A stretch of DNA of 64,000 nt, taken from Deltaproteobacteria bacterium (lineage in GTDB: Bacteria > Myxococcota_A > Polyangia > DRWM01 > JAAZOP01). The position numbers and the translations under genes are program-made. Location: contig JACRCZ010000074.1 of NCBI GenBank assembly GCA_016218765.1, forward strand, positions 5,827 to 69,826. Reading direction: 5' to 3'. The notes under the pieces were generated by a model. That model worked only from the letters and a program-made list of their open reading frames with translations. It did not search any database and was not told the origin of the DNA. Below, one piece after another: positions 38,262 to 64,000 of the stretch (the first letter of the stretch is position 1; each line of letters starts with the position of its first letter).

Positions 38262-39185
38262 CTACGACACCGGCCGCGGCAGCAGCCCGGCACGCTCGGC
38301 GATCTCCGGTACGCGGTGCTCCCACTCGATCGCCATGAGGTGCACGCCGGAGACGCCTTTCATCGCCCGCAGCTCCGCGATCTGCTCGCACGCGATGCGA
38401 ATGCCCTCGTCCGCGACCTGCTTCTTCGGCACCCCGCCCAGCCGCCGGAGCAGCGCCTCCGGCACGTCCATCCCCGGCACCTTCTGCTGCATGTACGTCG
38501 CCATCGCGACGCTCTTGAGCGGCGTGATGCCGGCCAGGAGGAACACGCGGTCCAGCACGCCCAGCTCGCCGGCCTGGTCCACGAACTCGGCGAAGCGCTT
38601 CATGTTGAAGACGCACTGCGTCTGCACGAAGTCCGCCCCGGCCCGCACCTTCTTCGCCAGCCGCCGCGCCCGGAACTGCGGCAGATCCGCGAAGGGGTTG
38701 GCCGCGGCCCCCAGAAAAATCCGCGGCGGCGTCTCCACCGGCCGGCCGGAGAGGAACTTCCCGTCGTCCCGCATCCCGCGCACCGCCTGCAGGAGCTGCA
38801 ACGAATCGATGTCGTAGACGCTCTTCGCCTCGGGATGGTCGCCGAACTCCTGCAGGTCGCCCGAGAGGCAGAGCAGGTTGCGAATGCCGTTGGCGGACGC
38901 GCCGAGCACGTCGGCCTGCATCGCCAGCCGGTTCCGGTCGCGGCAGACCATCTGGTACACCGGCTCCAGGCCCTCCTGAAGCGCGATCAGCGACGCGCCC
39001 CAGCTCGACATGCGCACCACCGCGGTCTGGTTGTCCGTGACGTTGACGGCATCGACCCGCCCGCGCAGGAACGCCGCCTTGCGCCGCAACGCCTCGACGT
39101 CGGCCCCGCGCGGCGGCCCCAGCTCCGCGGTGAAGGCGAAGTGCCCCGCCCGCAGGACGCGCTCCAGGTTGCTCCCGGCCTTCAT
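38262..39185 (-). CDS. metF: Methylenetetrahydrofolate reductase, MetF subunit (anaerobe type)
   Basis: TAELGPPRG, NVTDNQTA, CRDRNRLA, LSGD, KKVRAGADFVQTQ, GVHLM. Confidence 0.95.
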   Translation of the reverse strand: MKAGSNLERVLRAGHFAFTAELGPPRGADVEALRRKAAFLRGRVDAVNVTDNQTAVVRMSSWGASLIALQEGLEPVYQMVCRDRNRLAMQADVLGASANGIRNLLCLSGDLQEFGDHPEAKSVYDIDSLQLLQAVRGMRDDGKFLSGRPVETPPRIFLGAAANPFADLPQFRARRLAKKVRAGADFVQTQCVFNMKRFAEFVDQAGELGVLDRVFLLAGITPLKSVAMATYMQQKVPGMDVPEALLRRLGGVPKKQVADEGIRIACEQIAELRAMKGVSGVHLMAIEWEHRVPEIAERAGLLPRPVS

Positions 39186-39472
39186 CCGCCGCCCACCAGC
39201 ATCGTGATCGCCAGCACGTCGCCCTCGCCCAGCGGCCGGTCGAGCTGATCGCGACGCAGCCAATCCCGGTTGTTGTGCACGATCTGGAACGACAGGTCGA
39301 GCCTCCCCTGGTCGTCGAGCAGGAAGCGGCGGAGCCCGTCGCCGCCGCGCGCCGCGAGCGCACGGACGGCGTCGGCCACCGTGCCGCCGTCGACGTCGAG
39401 CGGCAGCGACCTTCCGCCCGCGAGCTTCGCGGCATTGGGCAGCCCGAGGAACTCGACCGTCACGCGGATCAT
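39182..39472 (-). CDS. MoaD/ThiS-family ubiquitin-like protein
   Basis: 96 aa beta-grasp pattern, LGEGDVLAI, C-terminal VGGG; overlaps both neighbours. Confidence 0.9.
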   Translation of the reverse strand: MIRVTVEFLGLPNAAKLAGGRSLPLDVDGGTVADAVRALAARGGDGLRRFLLDDQGRLDLSFQIVHNNRDWLRRDQLDRPLGEGDVLAITMLVGGG

Positions 39473-39969
39473 CGCCCCGCCAGCAGCTCCGCGCCGGAGC
39501 GATCGGCCTCGAGCAGCCGGCGCGCGGCGACGCGGCCCTTCCCGATGCCGACGTCGCCCGGCTCGGCGTACGTCACCGCGTGGACCTCGCAGAACCTCGC
39601 GCACTGCGGCTCGCCCTCGCACAGGTCGCACTTGATCACCTTGCGCTCCGAGGGGACGAAGTGCATCGCCCCGAACGGGCAGACGGAGACGCAGGTGCGG
39701 CAGCCGATGCACTTGTCGTAGTCGACGGCCACCGCGCCCAGCGCCTCGTCCCGGGCGATGGCCTTGGAGGGGCAGGCCTTCTGGCACGGCGCGTCCTGGC
39801 ACTGCTGGCAGGCCATCGGGACGTAGACGCCCTCGCCCTCCCACTTGATGACGCGGATGCGGCTCTTGGTCGGGTTGGAGACCCCGTGGTGCCGCACCGC
39901 GCACACCAGCTCGCAGAGGCGGCAGCCCGTGCACTTCTCGTGGTCGATCTGCAGCAGCTTGTGGCTCAT
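39469..39969 (-). CDS. 4x[4Fe-4S] electron-transfer subunit (DmsB/HydN/AorA-like)
   Basis: CTGCRLCELVC, CQQCQDAPCQKACP, CIGCRTCVSVCP, KCDLCEGEPQCARFC. Confidence 0.93.
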   Translation of the reverse strand: MSHKLLQIDHEKCTGCRLCELVCAVRHHGVSNPTKSRIRVIKWEGEGVYVPMACQQCQDAPCQKACPSKAIARDEALGAVAVDYDKCIGCRTCVSVCPFGAMHFVPSERKVIKCDLCEGEPQCARFCEVHAVTYAEPGDVGIGKGRVAARRLLEADRSGAELLAGR

Positions 39970-39980
39970 GGCGCGCCTCC

Positions 39981-41921
39981 TCACATCACCCGCGAAGGCT
40001 CGCGGTCCAGGCCCAGCCGCGCGAGCGTCTCGGGCTTGGGCACGCCGTCGGCGTCGAGGCCCTTGTGCACGTAGAACTCGTCGACCATCTTGTCGAAGCG
40101 CTCGCGGTCGATCTTCAGGCCGACGACGCCGGGGGCGCCCCGGCGGCACGGCTCGTCGAAGTAGCGGTGGTTCAGCATGTCGCCCTTGCGCGTGTCGCGC
40201 CGGGTCAGTCCCTCGCGGAGGTTGAACAGCCGCTCCATCATGTTGGCGCGCTCGGCGACGTCCCAGATCTCCCGCGGCGTGAACTCGAGGCCGGTGTTGA
40301 GCCGGATGACCGCCGGCCAGTCCTCGAAGTTGGGGTGCGTCGCGCCGAGGAACACCGTGTGGTACTTGCAGATGCCCAGGCAATCGACGGCCATGTAGCA
40401 GTTCTCCTGCCAGAAGACCTGCCAGGGCTTGCCGATGTACTCGGTGTGCTCCGAGCTGAGCGGCCCGTCGTAGGGCACCGGGCTCCCGTAGATCTTGCGC
40501 AGCACGGGCTCGGGCAGGTGGTAGAGATCGATGGCGGGACGGCTGCGCAGGTGGTCGGAGCCGCGCGAGGCGGTGGCGATGTTGAGCGCCAGGCCCGGCG
40601 TCGCACGCTCGTCGGAATGCAGGTTGCTCATCCCCTTGACCTGGATCAGGTAGTCGAACGAGTTCTTCCCAATGGCCTCGCTGGCGGCGAGGCCGCCGTC
40701 GGCCAGCGCGTTGGCCAGCCACCCGTCGCGGCGGCAGATGCGGTGGATCATCTCGAGGAGGGCCTCGTCGTTGCCGAACCGCAGCTCAAGGCCGCCGGTC
40801 TGCTCGCGGTCGATGATGCCCAGCTCGTACAGCTCCATGGCCCACGAGATGAGGCTTCCGATCTCCAGGTTGTCCACGCCGTACTGGTCGACGAGGTGGT
40901 TGCCGACCAGGACGGTCTCCGCGCTGCGGCAGTCGGGCTCGCCGGCGAACGCGCCCTGCGAGGTGTACTCGGGACCCTCGTCGTACTTCCCCTTGTAGGG
41001 GCCGGAGGGGATCTTGTACTGCGCGCGGCAGTGGACCTGGCAGGCGTAGCAGCCGGTCATGTGGTACGGACCCATCGTCTCGGTCGCGATCTCGTCGATG
41101 CGCTCAGGCTCGACGTCGTCGGCGTACTCGAGCTGGTTGTACTGGAAGTTGCGGGTGCGCACGCCGCCCCAGGAGTTGGTGGCGCCCCAGATGAAGGGGG
41201 TGCCAAGCGTGCCCTGGGTCTGGTTGACCTTGGAAGAGGTGATCTGCTCGATGAAGCGCTTGTTGTGCTCCAGGGCCTCGACGGGATGCGCGATGCGGAT
41301 GTCCATCGTGCCGCGGGCGGCGACGGCCTTGAGGTTCTTGGAGCCCATGATGCAGCCCATGCCGGTGCGGCCGGCCGCGTTCTTGATCCCGGTCATGACG
41401 TTGGCGAAGCGGACGAGCCTCTCGCCGGCGGGACCGCAGACCAGGCTCTTGACCTCGTCGTCGCCCAGCTCCTCGCGGATCGCCGCCTGCGCCTCCGTGG
41501 TCGTCTTGCCCCAGACGCGCGCGGCATCGCGGATCTCGATCCTGCCGTCGTGGACGTAGAGGTAGACCGGCTTGGGAGACCTGCCCTTGATGACCAGGTG
41601 GTGGAACCCGGCCCAGGCCAGCTCGGGCGCGAAGAAGCCGCCCATGTTGGCGGAGCCGACGAGGCCGGTGAGCGCGGATTTCGCCATGACGTGCGTGCGC
41701 GCGGTGGCCGAGGCGCAGGTGGCGGTGAGCAGGCCGCCGGAGATGAGCAGCACGTTGTCGGGGCCGAGCGGGTCGGCGCCCGCAGGCACGTGGTTGTAGA
41801 GCAGGTAGGCGTCCAGGCCGCGGCCGCCGAGGAACCGGCGGCGCATCTCGAGCGGGATGGGCTGGACGCTGATCTCGCCCGTGGTGAGGTTGACGTATCC
41901 GATCTTCCGGGAAAGAGGCAT
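39981..41921 (-). CDS. Aldehyde:ferredoxin oxidoreductase-family (tungstopterin, WOR) catalytic subunit
   Basis: LGGRGL, KSALTG, GPAGERLVRFA, GRTGMGCIMGSKNLKA, CYACQVHC, DQYGVD, RGSDH, GICK. Confidence 0.95.
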   Translation of the reverse strand: MPLSRKIGYVNLTTGEISVQPIPLEMRRRFLGGRGLDAYLLYNHVPAGADPLGPDNVLLISGGLLTATCASATARTHVMAKSALTGLVGSANMGGFFAPELAWAGFHHLVIKGRSPKPVYLYVHDGRIEIRDAARVWGKTTTEAQAAIREELGDDEVKSLVCGPAGERLVRFANVMTGIKNAAGRTGMGCIMGSKNLKAVAARGTMDIRIAHPVEALEHNKRFIEQITSSKVNQTQGTLGTPFIWGATNSWGGVRTRNFQYNQLEYADDVEPERIDEIATETMGPYHMTGCYACQVHCRAQYKIPSGPYKGKYDEGPEYTSQGAFAGEPDCRSAETVLVGNHLVDQYGVDNLEIGSLISWAMELYELGIIDREQTGGLELRFGNDEALLEMIHRICRRDGWLANALADGGLAASEAIGKNSFDYLIQVKGMSNLHSDERATPGLALNIATASRGSDHLRSRPAIDLYHLPEPVLRKIYGSPVPYDGPLSSEHTEYIGKPWQVFWQENCYMAVDCLGICKYHTVFLGATHPNFEDWPAVIRLNTGLEFTPREIWDVAERANMMERLFNLREGLTRRDTRKGDMLNHRYFDEPCRRGAPGVVGLKIDRERFDKMVDEFYVHKGLDADGVPKPETLARLGLDREPSRVM

Positions 41922-43140: not shown

Positions 43141-43524
43141 ATGTCGTATTTCCGGGTGAGCGAGACGTGCAACGGGTGCCTGGCCTGCGTGCAGAACTGT
43201 CCCGCGCGGGCTCTCGACGCGCGCGACGAGGGCGACCGCCGCATCCTCCTGCACAACATGGCGCGTTGCGCGCGCTGCGGGACCTGCTGGCGCGTATGCC
43301 CGCAGCACGCCGTCGAGTTCCAGCACATCCTGGTCAGCTCGTGGGACGAGGTCGTCGTCCTGCCGCTGCTTCGCTGCGAGATCTGCGGCGAGGCCGTGCA
43401 CACGGCGAGGCTGCCTGCGGGGCTCGAGCCGCGACTGTCCGAGCTGGCGCCGCCGCTGTGCGATCGGCACCGGGCGGCGCGACGGGCGGCGCAGCTCCGG
43501 GTGCCGGCGGGAGGGGCGTCATGA
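43141..43524 (+). CDS. 2x[4Fe-4S] ferredoxin-like protein with extra C-terminal CxxC...CxxH site
   Basis: CNGCLACVQNCP, CARCGTCWRVCP, CEICG...LCDRH. Confidence 0.88.
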   Translation: MSYFRVSETCNGCLACVQNCPARALDARDEGDRRILLHNMARCARCGTCWRVCPQHAVEFQHILVSSWDEVVVLPLLRCEICGEAVHTARLPAGLEPRLSELAPPLCDRHRAARRAAQLRVPAGGAS

Positions 43525-53252: not shown

Positions 53253-55409
53253 CTACTCGGACAGCTCTGCCAGGATCTCCGCCGCGCGCTCGCGCGCCGC
53301 GGCCGCGCGCTTCCGAAGGTCGTCAATCTCCACGGTGAGCGCGTCCAGACGCCGCCCGGCCTCGATCATGCGCTCGGCCACCTCGGTCGCCACGTCCTCG
53401 TCCGCGCCGGAACCGGCCAGCGCGGCGAGGTCCGCGCGGTGGCGCGCGAGCTCGTTGGAAACCGTCGTCATCGCGTTCTGCCGCTCCGACGCGTCCCCGG
53501 CCAGGACGTCCGACTCGTGCAGCGCTTCCCCCGCGCGCCGCAGGATCTCGCGCACCCCCGGCGGCAGCCGGTCGTCCTCGGCCAGGGCGGCGACGGTGCT
53601 GACGCCCAGCGTGCTCGCCGGCCAGTTGCGCTGGAGCCCCTCCTCCGTCGCGACGACCTGGGTCAGCTCCTCGCCCGCCGGCAGCTCCACGCAGACGTGG
53701 TAGTACTCGAAGCCGTCCTCGGCGGTGAGCAGCTCGACGGAGCCCCCCGACGTGACGCGCCCGTTGACGAGCGCCGGGGCCCGGAGGCAGACGTTGCGCT
53801 CGCTCGCCGCGTGGCTCGTGAGGACGTAGCTGCGCCGCACGACGTGCACGTAGTGTTCCTCCAGGCGCGGCTCCGCTCCACTCCAGTCGGTCGCCGGCGG
53901 GTGGAACCAGCGCACGATGCGCGGCTGCTCCTCGTCCTCCCAATCGCCCTGCTCGACGACAACGTCCAGGTCGGCGCCGTGAGGCAGGACGCGAGCGTCC
54001 TCGACGTACATCCGCGGCAGCCACGACTGCCCGGAGAAGCCGCCGTCGAACACCGCCAGCGGCCCCTCGCGCAGGGCGAACCCCGTGTCGTTGCGGATCT
54101 TGATCGCGGCCAGGACGTTGAGCGCGTCGTCGACCAGGCTGATTCGCTCGGCCGAGACCCCGGCATCGATCACCGGCACCAGCGCCGACTCGTGCGCCCG
54201 CAGCGAGAGCGGCTCGGTCGCGTGGTACGACAGCAGCTCCCGGCGCTGCTCGGGCGACGCCTGCGCCTCGGCGGCCAGCTCGCCGATCGCCAGGAGCTGG
54301 CTGGCGGAGACGCCGCCTCCTCCGCCATAGCCGGTGCCGATCATTCCCATGCCGGCGCTGCCGTAGGCGCTGCCGTACCCGCCTCCGCTGCCGTAGCCGT
54401 ACCCGTAGCCGTAGAGCCCGGCGTCCGCGAGCTGGTCGGCGTTGGTGCCGGCGAGCTGCGGGGCCGTGTCCATGCCGTCCTCCGCGGGAACGACCTCGCG
54501 GTGCCGGAAGCGCGGCGTGACGAAGGGGAAGAGGTACGAGTTCGGCTGGCCCTCGACCAGCTCCACGGCGACGTTCTGCCAGTCCTCGTCGGTGTCGTTG
54601 TGCACGAGCGCCCAGCCCTGCACCCGAGCGCGCGCGTCCTGGAAGACGAGACGGTAGCTCACCCGCCAGACCGGGGCCTCGGCGAGGTAGCCGATCGCCA
54701 GGTCGCCGCCCTCGCGCACGGATACGCCGACGGTCTCCTGCTCCTCGCCGCGGCGCTGGGCCAGCGCCGCGACGGCGCGGTCCAGGGCCGTCTGCGCGGG
54801 CTCGTCGGCGGGGCCGACCGATTCGATCTCGTCGAGCTTGAACCAGCGCAGGGCGCCGTCGCCGGCGAGGAAGACGACGACGGGGAGCTGGACGGTGGCG
54901 GCGTCCGGAACGGGGTTGCCCGAGGCGTCGGTGCCGTCCGAGCCGGCGGCGGCCGGCTCCTCGACGCGGGCCACGCCGATCACGCGCCCTTCCAGCGTCT
55001 CGCCGTCCCTCGTGACCAGCTTCGCCTGGAGCCCCGCCATGGCGCCGAGCAGCGGGAGAATGGAGCCCTCGGCCGCGAAGGCATCGAACGGCGCGGGCGA
55101 CTCGGCCAGGGCGGCCTCGGGCGCCAGGACGCTGGGGAACGTCATCGCGCCGACCCGTGCGCCGTCGGATGTGAGCACGACGAGCGTCATGAGGGCGTCG
55201 TCGAGGTGGTTCTGGGGCACGAGCAACGCGAGGGGTCCGTGCCGCTGCACGGGTCCGCGTCGCTCGAAGTAGCCGACGCCCGACTCGTACAGGACGACGC
55301 TCCGGAGCGGCAGGACTGCCGGGGCGGTCTCGCGCGCGGCGTGCGCGGCCGGGGCGAGCAGGCCCGTGGTCGCGAGCGCAAGGCACACCGCTCCCTTTCG
55401 ATTGCCCAT
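53253..55409 (-). CDS. Secreted DUF4139-like protein with C-terminal coiled coil
   Basis: Signal ending AHA-A; VVLYESGVGYFER; YLAEAPVWRVSYRL; QGWALVHNDTDEDWQNV. Confidence 0.85.
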   Translation of the reverse strand: MGNRKGAVCLALATTGLLAPAAHAARETAPAVLPLRSVVLYESGVGYFERRGPVQRHGPLALLVPQNHLDDALMTLVVLTSDGARVGAMTFPSVLAPEAALAESPAPFDAFAAEGSILPLLGAMAGLQAKLVTRDGETLEGRVIGVARVEEPAAAGSDGTDASGNPVPDAATVQLPVVVFLAGDGALRWFKLDEIESVGPADEPAQTALDRAVAALAQRRGEEQETVGVSVREGGDLAIGYLAEAPVWRVSYRLVFQDARARVQGWALVHNDTDEDWQNVAVELVEGQPNSYLFPFVTPRFRHREVVPAEDGMDTAPQLAGTNADQLADAGLYGYGYGYGSGGGYGSAYGSAGMGMIGTGYGGGGGVSASQLLAIGELAAEAQASPEQRRELLSYHATEPLSLRAHESALVPVIDAGVSAERISLVDDALNVLAAIKIRNDTGFALREGPLAVFDGGFSGQSWLPRMYVEDARVLPHGADLDVVVEQGDWEDEEQPRIVRWFHPPATDWSGAEPRLEEHYVHVVRRSYVLTSHAASERNVCLRAPALVNGRVTSGGSVELLTAEDGFEYYHVCVELPAGEELTQVVATEEGLQRNWPASTLGVSTVAALAEDDRLPPGVREILRRAGEALHESDVLAGDASERQNAMTTVSNELARHRADLAALAGSGADEDVATEVAERMIEAGRRLDALTVEIDDLRKRAAAARERAAEILAELSE

Positions 55410-55500: not shown

Positions 55501-57144
55501 TTACGTTTCCCCGGGCGCCTCGACAGGAGTTCCCTCGCTTGGCGGTTCATCGCCCGGGAGCTCGTCCTGGACCCAGCGCGACCGGGGATGATGGCGGCGG
55601 GGGGCGCAACGGACGGCGGCGGGGCGGTCGTCGGGGTCCGTCCAGGTGGCGTAGTGCAGCTCCTGGATGTGGCCGTTGCGGTGGCGCACTCCCGGGCGGA
55701 AAAGGACCTCGGGGTCGCAGTTCTTCCCCTTGTAGATGAACTCGAAGTGCACGTGCGGGCCGCGGCTGATCCCCGTGCTGCCCAGCTCGGCGATGATGCC
55801 GCCCGCGGGAACGCGCTGCCCGGCGACGACGAAATTGGCCGAGTTGTGGGCGTACATCGTGACCCACCCGCCGGGATGGATGAGGATGACCATGTTGCCG
55901 TAGCCGCGGACCTCGTTGCCGCTGTAGCCGACGATGCCGGCGGCGGAGGCGCGGACGTTCCAGCCCATCTCGCCCATGACGTCGGTCGCCAGGTGGTAGC
56001 CGCCCTCGCCCGAGCCCCAGCCGCGGACGTACCAGCCGTTGCTCACGGGCCAGCGCAGCGTCCCGGGGAGCTCGTCCCCTCCGGCCGCCTCGATCCACGA
56101 CTCCTTCACGCGGCCGGCCAGCAGCGCGATGGCCGCGTCGTGGGTGCCGAGACCCAGGCGGCGGGCAAGGGACGTCGCCCCGCGCGCGCTCGCGCCCCCT
56201 TCGCGGCGGACCCGCCCGTTGCGGGCCTCGCTCACCCCCGGGCTCCACAGCTCGGTCCCCTCGCGCAGCGCCTTGGCGTCGTCGGCGCTCAGGCGGTTGG
56301 CGGCCATGATCTGCCCGACGCCCACCTGGAAGGCACTGGCCAGGTCCCAGATCGTCTCCCCGGACGCCAGGATGTGGCGGATGCCCGTCGGCTCCACGGC
56401 GTCGGCGGTCTGGATCTGGTCGTCCGTGATGCCGGGAATGATCACCGGCGTGCCGACGGAGAGGGCTCGGATTTCGTCGTCGGTGAAGCCGTTGCGCTCG
56501 GACAGCTCATCGACGGTCTTGCCGTAGGTGCGGGCGATCTCCCACAGGGTCTCGCCCGAGCCGACGAAGTGGTAGGCCCCGTCTTCCAGCGGAGGGAGCG
56601 CCGCGCGAGCCGCCCGCTGGGCCTCGGCCCGCGCGGCGGCATCGAGGACGGCGACGGGCGCGGAGACGCCGGGGATCCGCAGGACGCGGCCCTTGGAGAG
56701 CCGGCGCACGCGGTCGGCGCGCAGGTGGTTGGCGCGCAGGATGGCGTCGACGCTCACGCCGTACGACATCGCGATGTCCCACAGCGTCTCGCCCTCCTGG
56801 ACGACGTGCTCGACGAACGGCTCCTCGGCGTCGACCTCCGACGCCTCTCCGGCGTCGGGGCCCGCGTCGAGCGCCCCATCGGCATCGGCCGCGTCGCCGG
56901 CGCGCACGTCGTCGTCGTCCGGCGAACCCTCCGCCTCACCTTCGTCGGCGGACGGCGACACGTCCGCCCCCTCCGGCCCGGCGTCGCCGCTGCCCGGACG
57001 CGTGCTGGGGGAGCTGCCGCAGTAGCTTCCGGCGACCAGGTCTGCGAGAACGAGCATCCCCGGCAGGAAACGCGCGGTGGCGGCCCGGAGTCGCGATCGA
57101 TTCGTCGTCGAGTTCCTTGCGGCGCGCTGCACTCCGGCCAGCAT
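55501..57144 (-). CDS. LysM (x3) plus M23 peptidoglycan metallopeptidase
   Basis: Three GET(L/I)W(D/E)(I/L)A LysM repeats; HLATD, GYGN, YAHN, GPHVHFE. Start uncertain. Confidence 0.9.
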   Translation of the reverse strand: MLAGVQRAARNSTTNRSRLRAATARFLPGMLVLADLVAGSYCGSSPSTRPGSGDAGPEGADVSPSADEGEAEGSPDDDDVRAGDAADADGALDAGPDAGEASEVDAEEPFVEHVVQEGETLWDIAMSYGVSVDAILRANHLRADRVRRLSKGRVLRIPGVSAPVAVLDAAARAEAQRAARAALPPLEDGAYHFVGSGETLWEIARTYGKTVDELSERNGFTDDEIRALSVGTPVIIPGITDDQIQTADAVEPTGIRHILASGETIWDLASAFQVGVGQIMAANRLSADDAKALREGTELWSPGVSEARNGRVRREGGASARGATSLARRLGLGTHDAAIALLAGRVKESWIEAAGGDELPGTLRWPVSNGWYVRGWGSGEGGYHLATDVMGEMGWNVRASAAGIVGYSGNEVRGYGNMVILIHPGGWVTMYAHNSANFVVAGQRVPAGGIIAELGSTGISRGPHVHFEFIYKGKNCDPEVLFRPGVRHRNGHIQELHYATWTDPDDRPAAVRCAPRRHHPRSRWVQDELPGDEPPSEGTPVEAPGET

Positions 57145-57284
57145 TCCCTTCGCCCCCCGTCCCCGGGGGACAGAGTACGCGGGAGGTCGCGGGCGAGGCA
57201 ACCCGTCACCCGCCGTCGCGGTTGGACGAATCCCGCCGAGGTGCGCTACGATCCCGCTGCCGTCCTCGGCACCCGGAGGCAAGG

Positions 57285-57887
57285 ATGAAACGCCCCGAAC
57301 ACGATCCGCAGGAGTCGACCGATACGCCCGCGGCGCCGTCGCCGCGCACGACCATCGTCGGCGGCCGGCCGCCGGAGAAGGCGGACGCGGCGCAGACGGT
57401 CCCGACCGGGCTGCAGCGCCTGTTGCGGCTCGCGTCGTTCGACGGCGCGTTCCGCGAGGAGCTGATCCGGCGCCGGGGGGCCGCCGCCAAGGCGGCGGGG
57501 GTGCCGCTGACGGCGAGCGAGTCGGCGGTGCTGGCGGCGATCCCGGCCGAGCAGCTGGCGCAGATGGCGGGCAACCTGCCGCCGCCGGCGCCGGGACGAC
57601 GCGAGTTCCTGCGCCAGACGGCCGCGACCGCGGTCGTGCTGCTCGGCGGCGCGGCCTTGGGCTCGACCCAGGTCGGATGCCCGCTCGCCGCCGGAGGCGC
57701 GCGCCCCGACATGCCGCCACCGCCCGAGGACCGGGACGCGGGCGCGGAAGCCGAGGCGCAGCCCGAGCAGGACCACCCCGTGACGCGGGGCATCTCCGTC
57801 GACATCCCGCCCGAGCGACCCGACCAGTCGGAGATGATGACGGGCGGCGGCGCCGCGCCGGACATGCCGCCGGAGCCGGAGCGCTGA
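57285..57887 (+). CDS. Protein with NHLP-clan-like leader domain, internal Tat/lipoprotein signal and repeated GxxxD(M/I)PP motifs
   Basis: GGAGG RBS; LLRLASFDGAFREELI...GVPLTASESAVL; RREFL + hydrophobic stretch + VG-C. Confidence 0.75.
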   Translation: MKRPEHDPQESTDTPAAPSPRTTIVGGRPPEKADAAQTVPTGLQRLLRLASFDGAFREELIRRRGAAAKAAGVPLTASESAVLAAIPAEQLAQMAGNLPPPAPGRREFLRQTAATAVVLLGGAALGSTQVGCPLAAGGARPDMPPPPEDRDAGAEAEAQPEQDHPVTRGISVDIPPERPDQSEMMTGGGAAPDMPPEPER

Positions 57888-58023
57888 GCCACCGCCTCGC
57901 CGCCCGATGAGATGAACGCCTGACGAGGTGGGTGCGACACCGCGTCACACCCGGTGGGACACGGGGCGGCAGGCACGAGCAGCCGCGGGCTGAAGCGACG
58001 GCGTGCGGCCGGATCCTGGCGGC

Positions 58024-58165
58024 AACCGAACCGCGCCCTTCAGGGCGCGGCTGCCTTGCGGAGGCTGCCGCGGGCGGAAGTCCGGTTTGGATCGGCTAGC
58101 CCTCTTGGCGTCCTTTGCGGTCCTTTGCGTCCCTTGCGCGCTCGCCCTGAGCGGAGTCGACGGGA
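58024..58165. repeat. Composite of dispersed repeats (REP hairpin, CTTTGCG x4 copy 3, CCCTGAGCGGAGTCGA motif)
   Basis: 58024-58051 is identical (28/28) to 9628-9655; CTTTGCG-type units at 58104, 58113, 58123 and 58132. Confidence 0.8.
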
Positions 58166-58288
58166 ACCTCCGGCCGCCGATCTTCGAAGGCAAGCCCTTC
58201 ACCCGTCATTGGAACGAAGCTCGCATCAGCGGCCGCTGCGTCGGGATTCCGGCGGGATCGCCGGAGGGTGGTCGGAGGGAGACAGGCG

Positions 58289-59347
58289 ATGGCGGTTCGG
58301 TCGGTGGTGCTGATCGCGGGGTTGATCACGGCGGGCGGCTCCACGGCGCTCGCGCAAGAGAGCGAGAGAGAGGGCGGGGGAGCGGCGAGCCTTGAGCTGA
58401 CCGACGAGGTCGACCTGTCGGCGGCGCCGGAGGACGACGAGGAGCAAGCGGCGCCCTGGCGCGGGTCGGAGTTCGTCTGGCGCAACGTCATGAGCGCCGC
58501 GAGCCTCGACCCGTCCTACGAGCTGACCTGGAACCCGTACTACGCGATGGCGTTCACCTTCCGGGCCCGGTGGTGGTTCGACGACATCTTCAACGTCGGC
58601 GCGCGGCTGGACGTGACGCGCGAGTTGACGCAGGCGGACGACACGACGTTCATCGACGAGGCGCTCCTGGAGGACCTGGTGATTTCGGCGGGGGCGTCCA
58701 AGTTCTACACGATCCCGGTCGCGGGCATCGATCTCTCGGCCGACCTGCTGCTCACGACGCCGACGAGCAAGATCTCGCAGGCGCGGACGCTGGTGCTGGG
58801 GATCGGGCCGGGGGTGAGCGTGGGGCGGACGTTCGACGCGATCGGGCCGCTGCGGCTTTCGTATCACGTGCGGACGACGGGGCTCTTGCACCGCTACACG
58901 ACGGCGGAGCGCGAGACGCCGCTGATTCAGGGGTGCGGCGCGACGGAGGGGGGCTGCGACTCCTTCCTCAACACGGGGCTGCGCAACGTGCGGTTCCGCG
59001 TGGCGCACGGCGTGGACGTCTCGTGGGACCCGCTGGAGTGGTTCGGGGTGTCGGTGGGCTTCGAGCACATCGTCGACTGGCTGCACCCGATCGACGGGAG
59101 CGACCCGCGGGTAACGTTCGAGACGGAGCCGAACACCGACGAGCGGCAGCGGTCGGCGTTCGGGGTCGAGCTGACGTTCACGCCGATTTCCTCCTGGCAG
59201 ATCGGTTTGGGCTACGAGACGGTGAGCCCGCAGCTCAAGCTCGACTCGACGTACGAGAACCCGTTCTACAACCGGTATTCGACGGTGTACCTGGATTTGC
59301 GCCTGGAGTTCGACGGGCTGGTCGCTGAGCTCACGGGCGAGGGGTAG
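58289..59347 (+). CDS. Probable outer-membrane beta-barrel protein
   Basis: Signal ending ALA-Q; alternating amphipathic strands rich in aromatic residues; GGAGG RBS. Confidence 0.7.
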   Translation: MAVRSVVLIAGLITAGGSTALAQESEREGGGAASLELTDEVDLSAAPEDDEEQAAPWRGSEFVWRNVMSAASLDPSYELTWNPYYAMAFTFRARWWFDDIFNVGARLDVTRELTQADDTTFIDEALLEDLVISAGASKFYTIPVAGIDLSADLLLTTPTSKISQARTLVLGIGPGVSVGRTFDAIGPLRLSYHVRTTGLLHRYTTAERETPLIQGCGATEGGCDSFLNTGLRNVRFRVAHGVDVSWDPLEWFGVSVGFEHIVDWLHPIDGSDPRVTFETEPNTDERQRSAFGVELTFTPISSWQIGLGYETVSPQLKLDSTYENPFYNRYSTVYLDLRLEFDGLVAELTGEG

Positions 59348-59358
59348 GAGTGCGGAAC

Positions 59359-62300
59359 ATGACGAGGAAGACGTGGTGGTTGGCGTTCGGGACGCTCGCG
59401 GCCTGCGCCGCGCCGTTGGCCGGCTGCATGGACGAGCGGCCGGCGATCGATCGGGTGCAGCCGCTGGCGTTGCGCAAGGCGTACTTCGTGGGCGAGGACC
59501 TGCAGGGCGCGGCGGACGATCCCGTGTTCTGGACGCAGGGCACGCTGATCGACGTCGGGTACGGCGCCGCGCAGGACGGACTGTTCACGTCGACCTACGC
59601 CCAGCCGGTGTCGCGGCTGCGGTGGCAGATCACGGAGGACCTGCTGATCGGGCGGCTGGCCTACGAGCGGGTCGAGGGGACCGACGGGAAGGGAGCCGGC
59701 CACGCGACGGAGGACGGGGTCGTCGTCGTCGCCTATCCGATCGAGAGCCACTTCGACATCATCTACGCCTACAACCCGACGACGGGGGAGCGGCTCAACA
59801 TCAAGGAGGAGAACACGACGGATCGGCCGTGGTACCAGCGGGAGTACTTCCGCGTCGACTGGTCGAAGAACCTCAACGCGGACAGCTACGACTTCGACAC
59901 GCTCTCGCTGCTCGGCGTCTACGGCGGCATCACCTACCAGCCGCTGGCCTACGACGTCACGGACCCGCAGGACCCGAACGCGCCGGTGTTCGACCTGGAG
60001 CACGGGTACTTCGACGTGACGAACAAGGCCTTCGCGCAGCCCAACGTCATCGACCTCAGCCAGCTCGGCTGGGGCATCGACTCCTTCCCCGCCTGCTTCC
60101 TGGACGCGGACTTCTCCGGCGGCACCTACCCCTCCGGCTCGTGCAACCCGGTCGAGCTGACGATCCGGCAGTCGTTCCGGCGGGTGGAGAACAGCGACTT
60201 CGAGCCCAAGGACTGGGACGGAATCCGCTTCCAGGCGTACGGCGGGTTCTACACCGACCGCTACGGCTACGCGCGCAACTACGGGATGAGCGACGACCTG
60301 TGGCGCCGCTTCCTGAACCACCACCAGATCTGGGAGCGCACGCACTTCTACGCCGACCCGCAGACCATGGAGGGACCGATCGAGTGCTACACGCCGTCCA
60401 CGACGCCGTTCGGCAAGGAGCCGGACCGTGACGAGCTGGGGGCGGACGGGAGCGCGGGGGCGAACGGGACGGAGGACGAGTGCGAGGCGGCGGGGGCGGG
60501 CTCGCGCTGCGACACCTTCACCCAGCGCTGCACCCTGCCCTACGCGCAGCGCACGACGCGCACGCTGCCCTGGTACTTCACGCACGACAGCGATCAGGAG
60601 TTCTTCCTGCCGACGAAGTGGGCCGCGCACCAGTGGGACATCGCGCTGCGCATGGCCGTGCGGGCCTCGCAGTACGCCGAGTGCCAGGCGACGGGCGGGG
60701 CGGACTGCGCGTCGCGCTTCCCGGTGCTCACGGGTCAGCAGGAGGAGTACGAGGACGCGATCGCGCTGGCGGCGGAGGTCGACGACTGCCGCGACGCCGG
60801 ACGGGCGGACTGCGACGGGCTGGCGGACGAGCTGGCGGCGGCGCGCGGCTACGGCCCCGCGATCGTCTCCCTCTCGCGCATGCCCGACATGGTCGTCTTG
60901 TGCCACAGCCCGGTCGAGGCCTCCGACCCGGTCGGATGCGGCGGCCCGCGGCTGCCGGAGGGAACGACGGCCGAGCGGTGCGAGGCGGCGTACGACGACG
61001 GGCTGGCCGATCCCGTGCTGCTCGAGACCTGCCGCGCGGCGCTCAACGTGCGGCGCGGCGACCTGCGCTACCACCAGGTGAACGTGATGCCGGAGCCGCA
61101 GTCGCCGTCGCCGTGGGGCATCATGGTCGACTCGATCGACCCGCTCACGGGCGAATCGATCGCCGCGAGCATCAACGTCTGGGCGTTCGTCAACGACATC
61201 TGGAGCCAGGACGTGGTGGACAAGCTGCGCTACCTGCGCGGCGAGTACTCGACAGCGGACGTGACGAACGGCACGTACGTGCGCAACTGGACGATGGCCG
61301 CCCAGGCCGCGTCCGGCGGCGGCGCGCTGCCGATGATGACGCGCGAGGAGCGCGACCGGCGGCTGGCCGACTTCGCCGGCGGGCCGGTCGTCGACGCGGC
61401 CGAGGTGCCCGCGGAGCTGGCGGGCCAGATCCGGTCGCTGGACCGCGAGCTGCGCGAGGTGCGCTCGAGCCTCGGGACGGCGTCGTCGAACGCGGCGATC
61501 TACGAGGCGCGGCGGCGGCAGGCGCGGGGGACGGAGTTCGAGGCGGAGCTGATGACGCCGATGGTGCAGGAGCTGCACGGCGTCAACGGACTGCCGCTGA
61601 ACGACGCGCTGCTCGATGCGGCCTCGCCGCTGCGCGGCGGGCATCCGGAGTTCCGGCTGGAGATCGCGCGGCTGAAGGAAGAGGCGCTCGCGAAGCGCGG
61701 GGCCTGCATCCTGCACCCGGACGAGGCGGAGGCGCCGTTTTCGCTGACGGGGCTGGCGTCCGTGCTCGAGGCCAAGTTCGGCGCGTTCAACCCCGCCGAC
61801 GACCCGGCGGTCCAGCAGGAGCGTGCCGAGCGCATGCGCCGCTACGTCGCCCTGCGGGCGCACTTCGCGGTCATCGGCCACGAGATGGGGCACTCGATCG
61901 GCCTGCGGCACAACTTCATCAGCTCTTCCGACGCCTGGCAGTACCGCCCGCAGTACTGGCAGCTCCGCACGCGCAACGGCGACGTGACGACGGAGTGCGC
62001 CGAGCTGGCCGCGGACGGCGCGACGTGCGTCGGGCCGCGCTACTTCGATCCGGTCACCACCGAGGAGCGCGACAACCTGATCTGGATGTGGATGCAGTCG
62101 TCGATCATGGACTACGCGGGCGAGGCGACGCAGGACCTGATCGGCCTGGGGATCTACGACTTCGCCGCCACGCGCATGCTCTACGGCGAGACGGTCGCCG
62201 TGAACGCCGAGGAGCGCTTCCGCGACGGAACGGTGCTCGGCAACGCCCTGCTCGACCTGGAAGACACCTTCGGCGGCATCCTCGGCCTGGGCTTCGTGCT

Positions 62301-64000
62301 GGGCGACGAGGACATCCACTACTCGCAGCTCCAGCGGGAGTACGGGATGATCGGCGACTGCGTCGACGTGCCCGACCCGCAGGTGTTCAAGCCGCGCGAC
62401 TGGGACGAGGAGCTGCTGGGGGCGTGGAACCCGCTCCTGGACGGCCTGATGGTCCAGGTCGATGGGCAGTGGAGCCGCTGCAAGCAGCAGCGGGTCGACT
62501 ACGTGCCCTGGACCTCGCTGCAGCCGGCGACCCCGTCCGCGAGCAGCCCGGCGGTCGACCCGCAGGGCCGCATCCGCATGCCGTACGGCTTCGCGACCGA
62601 CCGCTGGGCCGATCTGGGGAACCTCTCGGTCTACCGCCACGACAACGGCGCCGACCCCTACGAGATCTTCAACTTCATGATCACCTCGCAGGAGATGTGG
62701 CAGATCTTCGACTCCTACCGCCGCCACCGCCAGACCTTCTCCGTGCGCAACGCCTCCGACCGCGTGCTCAACCGCTACAACGCGAAGATCCGCGACGGCG
62801 CCAAGGGCCTGGGGCTCATGCGCAACGTGTACAAGGACTTCGCCCTGCACCAGGGCTACGACTTCGACACCTTCTGGTCCATCGTCGCCGGCTTCTACCC
62901 CGACAACATCCTCGCCTCCGGCCTGGCGTTCGACCACTTCGCCCGCACGATGGCCCGCCCCGAGATCGGCGCGCATTTCCGCTACGACTGGGAGGACGTC
63001 CTGCGTTCGTCGATGGACGCGCCCGGCACCCCGGGCACGACCCTGGTCCTCGTGCCCAACGGCGCCAGCGGCTACTACGGCACGATCGGCATGGGCGGGA
63101 AGCTCGTGGAGAACCAGCTCTGCGGAAGCTGCGGCGAGTTCGACTCGGACTACACGATGAACGCGGGCTCGTACTACGACAAGATGAACGCGGCGATGCT
63201 CATGACCGAGTCGGTCGACAACTTCATCAGCGCCTCGCGCACCGACTTCACGGACCCCCGCTACCGCGCCGTCTCCCTGGCCGACCTCTTCCCGGACGGC
63301 TACCGCCGCTGGCTGGCCAACAACCTGACCGGTGACGACCTGCTCAAGGGCCCGCGCGTCGCGTCCAACGCGCGCGGCGTCCCGCTCAAGGACGACGACG
63401 GCTACCCCTCCGAGCCGATCGGCTGGACGACGTGGTGGAGCGAGACCCCGACGGCCTGCTTCCCGGCCGAGGGCACGACGATCTGCTCCAGCTACCACAT
63501 GCCGACCGCCGACCCGTTCGACCCGCGCGCGCCCGATCACGTCGCCGTGCTCGACCCGCAGGTCGGCTGGGAGCAGCAGAAGTTCCTCATCGCCTGGACG
63601 ATGCTCTACCTCATGGAGAACGAGGAGATGCGCTGGCTCGACCTGATGCGCCTGTGGGAGCTGGGCTCGGACGCCGATCCGGCGTTCGCCGAGCGCATCG
63701 AGTTCCACTCGCCCAACGGCGAGGTCTACGTCGCGCGCACCTTCGGCAAGGAGGAGATCTTCGGCGTGACCGTCCAGAAGGGCGTCGCCGCCCGCGTGCT
63801 CGAGTACGCCGACGGCCTCCTGGCGGCCGCGTACGAGACCACCGACGGTCCCGACCTCGACGGCGACGCCATCCCCGAATGGCATGTCGCCGTGACCAGC
63901 CCCGACACCGGCATGCCGGTGGTGCGCTGGGATCCGACGGTCGCGCAGATCGATGAGGACGGCTTCATCCGGCCCGACGGCATCCCGGGCTGCAACGCGA
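59359..64000 (+). CDS. Very large Zn-dependent metalloprotease (metzincin-type) lipoprotein, 3' end outside window
   Basis: AGGAG RBS and ATG 59359; APLAG-C lipobox; HEMGHSIGLRHNF at 61879 and Met-turn SSIMDY at about 62098, both in the same frame; >1540 codons. Absent from the ORF track, consistent with having no stop in the window. Confidence 0.9.
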   Translation, partial: MTRKTWWLAFGTLAACAAPLAGCMDERPAIDRVQPLALRKAYFVGEDLQGAADDPVFWTQGTLIDVGYGAAQDGLFTSTYAQPVSRLRWQITEDLLIGRLAYERVEGTDGKGAGHATEDGVVVVAYPIESHFDIIYAYNPTTGERLNIKEENTTDRPWYQREYFRVDWSKNLNADSYDFDTLSLLGVYGGITYQPLAYDVTDPQDPNAPVFDLEHGYFDVTNKAFAQPNVIDLSQLGWGIDSFPACFLDADFSGGTYPSGSCNPVELTIRQSFRRVENSDFEPKDWDGIRFQAYGGFYTDRYGYARNYGMSDDLWRRFLNHHQIWERTHFYADPQTMEGPIECYTPSTTPFGKEPDRDELGADGSAGANGTEDECEAAGAGSRCDTFTQRCTLPYAQRTTRTLPWYFTHDSDQEFFLPTKWAAHQWDIALRMAVRASQYAECQATGGADCASRFPVLTGQQEEYEDAIALAAEVDDCRDAGRADCDGLADELAAARGYGPAIVSLSRMPDMVVLCHSPVEASDPVGCGGPRLPEGTTAERCEAAYDDGLADPVLLETCRAALNVRRGDLRYHQVNVMPEPQSPSPWGIMVDSIDPLTGESIAASINVWAFVNDIWSQDVVDKLRYLRGEYSTADVTNGTYVRNWTMAAQAASGGGALPMMTREERDRRLADFAGGPVVDAAEVPAELAGQIRSLDRELREVRSSLGTASSNAAIYEARRRQARGTEFEAELMTPMVQELHGVNGLPLNDALLDAASPLRGGHPEFRLEIARLKEEALAKRGACILHPDEAEAPFSLTGLASVLEAKFGAFNPADDPAVQQERAERMRRYVALRAHFAVIGHEMGHSIGLRHNFISSSDAWQYRPQYWQLRTRNGDVTTECAELAADGATCVGPRYFDPVTTEERDNLIWMWMQSSIMDYAGEATQDLIGLGIYDFAATRMLYGETVAVNAEERFRDGTVLGNALLDLEDTFGGILGLGFVLGDEDIHYSQLQREYGMIGDCVDVPDPQVFKPRDWDEELLGAWNPLLDGLMVQVDGQWSRCKQQRVDYVPWTSLQPATPSASSPAVDPQGRIRMPYGFATDRWADLGNLSVYRHDNGADPYEIFNFMITSQEMWQIFDSYRRHRQTFSVRNASDRVLNRYNAKIRDGAKGLGLMRNVYKDFALHQGYDFDTFWSIVAGFYPDNILASGLAFDHFARTMARPEIGAHFRYDWEDVLRSSMDAPGTPGTTLVLVPNGASGYYGTIGMGGKLVENQLCGSCGEFDSDYTMNAGSYYDKMNAAMLMTESVDNFISASRTDFTDPRYRAVSLADLFPDGYRRWLANNLTGDDLLKGPRVASNARGVPLKDDDGYPSEPIGWTTWWSETPTACFPAEGTTICSSYHMPTADPFDPRAPDHVAVLDPQVGWEQQKFLIAWTMLYLMENEEMRWLDLMRLWELGSDADPAFAERIEFHSPNGEVYVARTFGKEEIFGVTVQKGVAARVLEYADGLLAAAYETTDGPDLDGDAIPEWHVAVTSPDTGMPVVRWDPTVAQIDEDGFIRPDGIPGCNA

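Follow-up and report, generated by a model that had tools for sequence, protein, structure and literature searches.

The window analysed here is a stretch of 64 kb from a Deltaproteobacteria bacterium, and our subject is one small gene on its forward strand, P0001, together with the family of proteins to which it belongs. A preliminary description had read the encoded protein as a precursor of a peptide that is synthesized on ribosomes and modified after translation (RiPP): a leader resembling the nitrile hydratase-like leader peptides (NHLP), then a concealed lipoprotein signal of the twin-arginine translocation (Tat) type, then three core-like repeats. On balance we lean towards the view that P0001 is an orphan member of an undescribed family, whose members are substrates of a B12-binding radical S-adenosylmethionine (SAM) enzyme and whose product would be anchored to lipid after Tat-type export. 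The features of the gene are as follows.

57285..57887, + strand: whole gene P0001, read as an orphan precursor, 200 aa plus stop (translation, GC content at third codon positions (GC3), homologues)
57275..57279, + strand: Shine-Dalgarno-like GGAGG, 5 nt ahead of the ATG
57339..57374, + strand: N-terminal motif SPRTTIVGGRPP (residues 19-30), conserved in the alignment
57408..57581, + strand: NHLP-clan-like helical leader domain (residues 42-99), from the NF038399 match and the helices of an AlphaFold2 (AF2) model
57597..57614, + strand: twin-arginine motif RREFLR (residues 105-110); R105, R106 and L109 are invariant in alignment A1
57618..57662, + strand: hydrophobic h-region TAATAVVLLGGAALG (residues 112-126), the best Kyte-Doolittle window
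57669..57680, + strand: lipobox-like Q-V-G-C (residues 129-132), with Cys132 as putative lipidation and cleavage site
57693..57719, + strand: core motif 1, GGARPDMPP (residues 137-145), from the sequence and the family logo
57786..57812, + strand: core motif 2, RGISVDIPP (residues 168-176), a variant of 'TRGIxPD' with Val replacing Pro
57846..57872, + strand: core motif 3, GGAAPDMPP (residues 188-196), with RPDQSEMM ahead as in the long repeat unit of the family

The gene and the parts of its protein

The GC content of the window is 72.6% and long open reading frames (ORFs) are present in all six frames, which leaves some room for the argument that there is no gene here at all, and that the signal stems from the overlapping minus-strand ORF 55501..57948 or is an artefact of high GC. 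We regard this as practically negligible. The minus-strand ORF is a gene for a peptidase with three LysM domains and an M23 domain, and both its homology and its coding signal end near 57057. In the plus-strand ORF the GC content at codon positions 1, 2 and 3 is 0.79, 0.60 and 0.94, and GC3 measured in 90-nt steps is 0.87-1.0 in the frame and 0.63-0.73 just outside 57285 and 57887. The closest orthologue, found in locus L001 of a groundwater metagenome-assembled genome (MAG) labelled Deltaproteobacteria, has equal length, 85% identity and a ratio of nonsynonymous to synonymous substitution rates (dN/dS) of 0.22; this value, the GC3 pattern and hundreds of homologues favour the plus-strand frame and refute the objection. 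Sequence statistics and conservation thus establish the ORF 57285..57887 as a real gene, translated over its full 200 aa.

A start directly before RREFL, which the preliminary description had kept in view, is not borne out. The GC3 pattern, the Shine-Dalgarno-like box, the conserved residues 19-30 and 40-94, which include many invariant positions, and dN/dS of 0.64 for residues 1-40 and 0.38 for residues 41-100 all argue that the first 104 residues are translated (dN/dS is 0.06 for residues 101-132 and 0.11 for residues 133-200). One could still argue that P0001 is an ordinary Tat lipoprotein that starts at Met94 (57564..57566; MAGNLPPPAPGRREFL...), the 93 upstream codons being untranslated or used in a minor isoform only. 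Such a start would yield a textbook N-terminal Tat-lipoprotein signal, and Met94 is highly conserved, being invariant in the 25-sequence alignment and present in at least 90% of the 141 sequences of a larger one. However, GC3 is at its high level already from 57285, no Shine-Dalgarno-like box precedes Met94, many positions upstream of it are invariant (residues 19-30 and 40-91), and the predicted enzyme interface described below requires the upstream helices. Moreover, the position is occupied by Ile or Leu in distant homologues, as is expected of a buried helix residue. Met94 as the sole start was therefore rejected for its GC3 pattern, missing Shine-Dalgarno box and upstream conservation, and we consider this reading very improbable; a second isoform from Met94, besides the start at 57285, may nevertheless be made.

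P0001 has numerous relatives. A word-indexed search, in which 8000 candidates were scored, returned 335 proteins at E≤1e-3; an exhaustive search of representatives at 50% identity returned 1322 at this threshold, 399 of them at E≤1e-10. The named sources are Myxococcota, Polyangia or 'Deltaproteobacteria' MAGs, and the names in the listed records are 'hypothetical protein' or that of a generic signal domain. The alignments have a fixed order of parts: SPRTTIVGGRPP, VPTG.Q.LLRLA with the helical domain, MPPP..RR.FLRQTAATAVVLLGGAAL, the Cys, and finally a repeat unit of the form RPD..EM...GGAAPD.PP or TRGI.PD.PP in 1-6 copies. No paper describing this precursor family, nor any RiPP with a Tat signal, was found in the open-access literature searched, and the family looks widespread and undescribed. 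Its layout and its substrate-like features suggest that the members behave like enzyme substrates.

At the N-terminus, residues P20, R21, T23, I24, V25, G26, G27, P29 and P30 of the SPRTTIVGGRPP motif are invariant in 25 sequences, and the pattern T[IV]VGG[RQK]PP is matched by 169 of the 250 homologues examined; the motif is missing in several tandem second copies, and AF2 models it with a predicted local distance difference test (pLDDT) value of only 48-59. The domain that follows agrees with the NHLP-like leader proposed earlier for residues ~40-98, and a search with profile models, as had been suggested, recovers the clan. The NCBIfam model NF038399, 'Os1348 family NHLP clan protein', matches residues 42-99 over profile positions 2-59 of 63 (37.4 bits, E 2e-9). 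It also matches 21 of 25 relatives (E≤1e-3) and, at E≤3.3e-10, which is our own conversion of its 40-bit cut-off, 18 of 141 family members, the best at 3.1e-14. The AF2 model, built on 25 sequences, places helices at residues 42-52, 54-63, 65-70, 77-85 and 88-96 with a pLDDT of about 90. TIGR04509, an NHLP-related model, gives a weak match (14.5 bits, cut-off 34), as does a profile comparison with the structure of Os1348 (PDB 6lk7, E 0.072). When the AF2 model was compared with the PDB by Foldseek, nothing reached E≤0.001, and the best 6lk7 chain aligned over 54 columns at 2.5 A. The ESM Atlas gave no lead: all scores were below 0.9, all entries were named 'hypothetical protein', and the structure rows had TM values below 0.35. 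One of the 141 members of alignment A4 also matches the acyl carrier protein model NF002148 (E 1.1e-10).

The consensus of a Tat signal is S/T-R-R-x-F-L-K with a moderately hydrophobic h-region behind it, and that of a lipobox, placed after the h-region, is [LVI][ASTVI][GAS]C. The preliminary description had noticed that RREFL, an h-region and VG-C appear only after about 105 residues, and we find them at residues 105-109, 112-126 and 130-132. P0001 fits the Tat consensus with G-R-R-E-F-L-R and then TAATAVVLLGGAALG, a Gly/Ala/Thr-rich segment whose best 15-residue Kyte-Doolittle window scores 1.75, and the RREFLR segment matches TIGR02811 at 17.5 bits; as the motif begins at residue 105, it does not have the N-terminal position of such signals. 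This position is a property of the family. Among the 226 homologues with a clear h-region, out of the 250 examined, the h-region begins at a median residue of 109, never before residue 40 and at residue 60 or later in 225, and in 204 of them RR stands at most 12 residues ahead of it. Of the 226, 213 have a Cys behind the h-region, with L (98) or V (36) at -3, A, S or T at -2, and G (92), A (57) or S (31) at -1. In the family the Cys stands 18-22 residues after RRxFL. One homologue, P0063, is named by NCBI as a twin-arginine translocation signal domain-containing protein.

AF2 predicts a single long helix for residues 103-126 and disorder for the tail behind it, which is acidic and proline-rich. 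The three core-like repeats seen in the preliminary description are found here at residues 137-145, 168-176 and 188-196, and they are beyond chance: when the 68-residue tail was shuffled 200,000 times with its composition preserved, two or more matches to a pattern covering two of the three P0001 motifs never occurred, and a single match occurred in 0.15%. The motifs recur in the homologues, which answers the call for a conservation check. They are carried by 36 of 46 family proteins and by only 1 of 510 other predicted proteins from the same loci, and that single carrier sits between a precursor and the enzyme gene described below. A logo over 653 motif contexts, which we anchored on [PAS]D.P, has Gly at -3 in 83% and Pro at 0 in 86%.

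The layout varies among the 45 homologous loci that we collected by a scan of one genome per species. Tandem precursor copies occur in L002, L003, L008, L013, L023 and L030. Three short paralogues consist of the leader domain and motifs only, without the RR, helix and Cys segment (L002 10743..11162, L003 10663..11082 and L030 3439..3801); their tails end in the basic amphipathic sequences RLWRWLRGK, RLWRWLRRK and GKLFKK, which may bind membranes. A Zixibacteriota MAG holds eight tandem copies ahead of a radical SAM gene (L040 5883..15069), most of them with a single Arg for RR, and in several of the eight the signal is separated from a lone C-terminal G-I-R-P-D-x-P motif by a folded domain of ~100 residues. 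An orphan subtype with a lone C-terminal A-I-G-G-x-x-A-D-x-P motif (L029, L043, L044) always lies downstream of a protein of 1100-1324 aa (cluster 15). The MAGs of L002-L004, L006, L008, L025 and others are titled 'uncultured Rickettsiales' or 'Enterobacterales', titles which are probably wrong, since the GC content is 66-74% and the gene content looks myxobacterial.

A linked B12-binding radical SAM enzyme

The preliminary description had proposed to inspect the neighbours of the homologues for a maturase, and one was found. After clustering of the genes at the 45 loci, with the result checked by tblastn, a protein of 491-499 aa with Pfam B12-binding and Radical_SAM domains (PF02310, 44 bits; PF04055, 56 bits) proved to be the recurring neighbour. 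Its gene adjoins the precursor in 30 of the 45 loci, or 30 of the 38 evaluable ones, seven loci ending too soon to judge. In 29 loci it is the next gene downstream, on the precursor's strand, and in one (L015) it stands directly upstream; it is missing in eight others whose downstream flank measures at least 1.2 kb (L001, L013, L019, L021, L024, L029, L043 and L044). Over 26 sequences the mean column identity of the enzyme is 77%, and C202, C206 and C209 of the CxxxCxxC motif are invariant. By its domains and motif it can be placed among the class B (B12-binding) radical SAM enzymes, and its relatives in the PDB are enzymes of this class: 9ccb, AprD4, OxsB, CysS and TokK. The best curated NCBIfam model is that of ApyD (NF050148), matched at positions 23-394 of 645 only; BchE and the RiPP C-methyltransferase model TIGR03975 come next.

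There is no other broadly recurring neighbour, as far as the Pfam searches extend, which took one representative from each of 38 clusters out of the 58 that recur, and within the same scope no protease, ABC exporter, YcaO protein or second radical SAM protein was found. The clusters covered were considered as partners and set aside, since only unrelated functions emerged from them, such as kinases, a seryl-tRNA synthetase and an ECF sigma factor. In two loci, L006 (1446..2369, - strand) and L035 (538 aa, upstream, - strand), a further B12-binding radical SAM paralogue, a more distant one, is found close to the cassette of precursor and enzyme genes.

Binding of the leader by the enzyme was modelled for the cognate pair of locus L003, whose 140-aa precursor is a paralogue of P0001 and not P0001 itself. 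The complex scored 0.84 and the best of three controls 0.01; of 157 solved complexes 116 attain the mark used for this score, as do 2 of 215 mismatched pairs, counts which are only rough because our own alignments were used. Three runs share at least 21% of their contacts, and the partner has a pLDDT of at least 56. The predicted interface comprises residues 12-21 and 49-72 of the precursor. These are the leader helices with the strongest conservation; they correspond to ~39-48 and 76-99 in P0001, and the predicted contact positions G42, L46, L47, E79, L83 and M94 are all kept in P0001. The prediction supports binding between leader and enzyme, but its score is the model's own confidence, a limit that has to be set against the reading we favour.

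The window copy itself stands alone. The family's radical SAM enzyme has no tblastn match in the 64 kb, in line with the earlier remark that no maturase is adjacent, and NCBIfam reveals no maturase among 35 of the 39 predicted window proteins; an enzyme gene beside the precursor, the general mark of a RiPP locus, is thus seen for the family and not for P0001. The suggestion that a maturase would act in trans fits the distribution of the orphans. Seven of the eight evaluable orphan loci are in MAGs that also hold a cassette (L001 with L009; L013 and L044 with L004; L021 with L006; L024 with L010; L029 with L008; L043 with L025), and L019 is the only one without a cassette in the same MAG. A tree of the leader and signal region was built from 41 rows, after one of the 46 proteins had been dropped as shorter than 120 aa and four as lacking the anchor motif for trimming. 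It is poorly resolved (21 of 38 inner branches are open), orphans arise in it at least four times among cassette copies, and the window copy pairs with that of L001 with support of 100/99. Only L001 has the same neighbourhood, in which the LysM/M23 peptidase and the precursor are flanked by a 711-aa protein on one side and, on the other, by a 352-aa protein and then a lipoprotein of more than 1550 aa.

Proposed pathway and competing readings

Our data can be arranged in the following pathway. The full 200-aa protein is translated, as sequence statistics and conservation indicate, and its NHLP-clan domain (42-99) would dock to the radical SAM enzyme in the cytoplasm; for P0001 we infer this step from the gene linkage in homologues and from the controlled complex prediction on a cognate pair. 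The enzyme would then modify the [GR]-G-x-x-[PV]-D-x-P-P motifs of the tail, still in the cytoplasm. As to the chemistry, one might guess from the enzyme class at C-methylation at or near the near-invariant Pro-Asp. The enzyme acting on P0001 would be encoded elsewhere and act in trans, a single enzyme serving several dispersed precursors, because orphans and cassettes co-occur in MAGs. RREFLR, the h-region and the Cys would form a Tat-type lipoprotein signal through which the modified tail is exported, and signal peptidase II would cut ahead of Cys132, so that the leader would be lost along with the signal. This would leave a peptide of ~69 residues with a lipid anchor in the envelope; these last steps are deduced from the sequence. 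Such one-step cleavage by signal peptidase II would explain why the cassettes contain neither a protease nor a transporter. The earlier reading of a modified, exported and lipid-anchored precursor is supported, all three of the refuting conditions that came with it having failed to refute it, with export, lipidation and chemistry as its conditional parts, and the idea that the product is displayed on the surface has found no support.

Rather more doubtfully, the family could represent a new RiPP-type class, in which one B12-binding radical SAM enzyme serves many precursors with an NHLP-clan leader and an internal Tat lipoprotein signal, and signal peptidase II acts as the leader peptidase. If so, RiPP-lipoprotein hybrids would gain a second enzyme class and a new architecture, and two things would be known for the first time: a RiPP-type pathway that uses a Tat signal, and a lipoprotein signal placed far from the N-terminus. 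It would mean that a leader can precede an export signal, with one host protease removing both, and it would offer a natural test case for the handling by Tat and signal peptidase II of signals ~100 residues into a protein. The distribution would be mainly in Myxococcota, with one Zixibacteriota MAG in addition. A reaction of a B12-binding radical SAM enzyme on a Gly/Pro/Asp motif may be new chemistry, and co-expression should be easy because the system has two genes. For annotation, there is a warning that the 'hypothetical proteins' of the family are not mis-started Tat lipoproteins.

A number of results weigh against the favoured reading of P0001. The gene calls behind the locus counts come from our own crude GC3-based caller. 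The leader match lies 2.6 bits below the curated NF038399 cut-off of 40, the Pfam model PF14407 (Frankia_peptide) gives a weak 16 bits against a cut-off of 48, and P0001 is unmatched by the canonical NHLP model TIGR03793 even at E≤10; in the Foldseek search the chains of Os1348 rank 4-7 with a non-significant E of about 4-6. The enzyme falls below every curated NCBIfam family (160.5 and 158 bits against 750 for ApyD), and no RiPP recognition element (RRE) was detected in it, its last 133 residues having no Pfam match at E≤10. The TAT_signal model TIGR01409 gives 14.4 bits on residues 105-127, below its cut-off of 16.7, and no precedent was found for a lipoprotein signal 105 residues from the N-terminus. 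The Gln at -3 of the lipobox of P0001 is atypical, occurring in 6 of the 213 homologues with a Cys, and the Cys is missing in 13 of the 226, P0003 having none at all. Distant members, such as the L040 copies, carry a single Arg for RR, so Tat use is not universal in the family. Finally, P0001 may never be modified, because the 64-kb window holds no radical SAM gene.

These points lend themselves to two further readings of P0001. In one of them, RR and the hydrophobic segment are a signal-anchor, and the protein remains an uncleaved bitopic membrane protein with the N-terminus inside and the C-terminus outside: the leader would be cytoplasmic and bound by the enzyme, the proline-rich tail would be periplasmic, and no lipidated peptide would be freed. 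The AF2 helix 103-126, which runs on unbroken with the arginines, would suit an anchor, as would the poor lipobox of P0001 and the homologues without Cys, and we know signals so distant from the N-terminus only as the Tat-inserted segments of dual Sec-Tat proteins (PMC3471235, PMC5449189). However, the Cys stands at a fixed spacing after RRxFL and in most of the 213 homologues is preceded by canonical lipobox residues, which is hard to reconcile with a plain anchor, and cassettes without protease or transporter fit the reuse of a host signal peptidase. Thus we find a bitopic protein unlikely, if worth keeping in mind.

The other reading is that the orphan copy has left the modification pathway and is now an unmodified envelope lipoprotein or a disordered periplasmic protein, its leader-like domain being a relic or having another role, such as holding back export. 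One would expect the missing enzyme gene in this case, and the neighbourhood, which is different and stable, being syntenic with L001 (the LysM/M23, 352-aa and >1550-aa proteins), would agree with it, as would the Val in place of the near-invariant Pro in the middle motif. Nevertheless, all of the enzyme-contact positions are retained, the leader domain and the tail are under constraint, as their dN/dS of 0.38 and 0.11 indicates, and the sister MAG contains the orthologue (L001) together with a cassette (L009). A copy that has dropped out of the pathway is therefore improbable in our judgement, and we retain the reading of P0001 as a substrate of a radical SAM enzyme acting in trans.

Known systems and the surroundings of the gene

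Several known systems resemble parts of this pathway. Proteusins, for example the polytheonamides, have a long helical leader of the NHLP type which recruits radical SAM enzymes, B12-dependent C-methyltransferases among them, to a C-terminal core, and they are defined by an NHLP leader and a radical SAM epimerase in the cluster. In contrast, the cassettes described here conserve no radical SAM epimerase, protease or ABC exporter, their sole conserved neighbour is the B12-binding radical SAM enzyme, the canonical NHLP models are unmatched, and export would proceed via an internal signal, so the family falls outside the proteusin definition. In prochlorosins one enzyme serves many dispersed precursors with a shared leader, and similarly our orphan precursors, which keep a conserved leader, are dispersed over genomes with a single maturase cassette. 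Prochlorosins differ in the enzyme, which is a lanthipeptide synthetase, in the leader family, which is Nif11/NHLP, and in the export route.

Os1348, from Pseudomonas sp. Os17, is a small, helical protein that resembles a precursor, and its gene lies upstream of putative modification genes (PMC7726476). The best profile match of the P0001 leader, NF038399, is founded on it; unlike P0001, Os1348 as described there has 85 aa, no signal or repeats and a different gene set that includes a GNAT acetyltransferase (PMC7726476). ApyD, of aminopyruvatide biosynthesis, is a cobalamin-dependent radical SAM enzyme which acts on a RiPP precursor, carries an RRE and beta-methylates Tyr (10.1101/2023.10.30.564719). 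It is of the same B12-binding radical SAM class as the linked enzyme and its model is the best-scoring curated one, but here the RRE is undetected, the motifs hold no Tyr and the score is far under the cut-off of 750 bits. Dual Sec-Tat membrane proteins, such as the actinobacterial Rieske protein, have an internal twin-arginine segment, and they are a precedent for a twin-arginine signal away from the N-terminus (PMC3471235, PMC5449189). In these proteins Sec-inserted helices precede the Tat segment, which stays as an anchor, and neither a lipobox nor peptide modification is known to be involved.

The closest parallel in overall design is offered by the DAG-RiPPs, RiPP-lipoprotein hybrids that were reported in 2026 in PNAS (PMC13056109). 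There too a ribosomal precursor is modified in the cytoplasm and a signal for signal peptidase II leads it into the host lipoprotein pathway, so that a dedicated protease or exporter is not needed (PMC13056109). The modified motif may belong to a small peptide or terminate a large protein (PMC13056109), and the L040 copies resemble the latter case. In contrast, DAG-RiPPs depend on MNIO enzymes that act on CPACGMG or EGKCG motifs and have an N-terminal signal, and they are further marked by diacylglycerol and N-acyl groups shown on the Cys (PMC13056109). Here we see a B12-binding radical SAM enzyme, an NHLP-clan leader of ~105 residues ahead of the signal, RRxFL[KR] and a G-x-x-P-D-x-P motif. 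The main text of the DAG-RiPP report uses none of the terms 'radical SAM', 'rSAM', 'NHLP', 'Tat' and 'twin-arginine' (PMC13056109).

In the immediate surroundings of P0001, a scan of 56900-58400 for promoters and terminators found nothing. The divergent intergenic region 57055..57284 (230 nt), shared with the LysM/M23 gene, yielded no sigma-70-like promoter and is 88% identical to that of L001, which makes it as conserved as coding sequence (about 85%). Two of the genes that are syntenic in L001 have no Pfam or NCBIfam match, namely 53253..55388 on the - strand (711 aa) and 58289..59347 on the + strand (352 aa, with a signal-like N-terminus). Downstream of the latter, 59350..63999 on the + strand runs off the window end and encodes the predicted lipoprotein of more than 1550 aa, whose signal ends in L-A-G-C; it contains a metzincin-like HEMGHSIGLRHNF motif and has a counterpart beside the orphan precursor in L001. 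This protein has no Pfam match at 1e-5, as judged from the L001 orthologue, and no NCBIfam match at 1e-6. Further away, 38265..41921 on the - strand and 43141..43521 on the + strand belong to a cluster of anaerobic-type metabolism in this Myxococcota-like contig; it comprises genes resembling those for aldehyde ferredoxin oxidoreductase and methylenetetrahydrofolate reductase, together with a 4Fe-4S protein and a small protein of the SAMP1/MoaD-like type.

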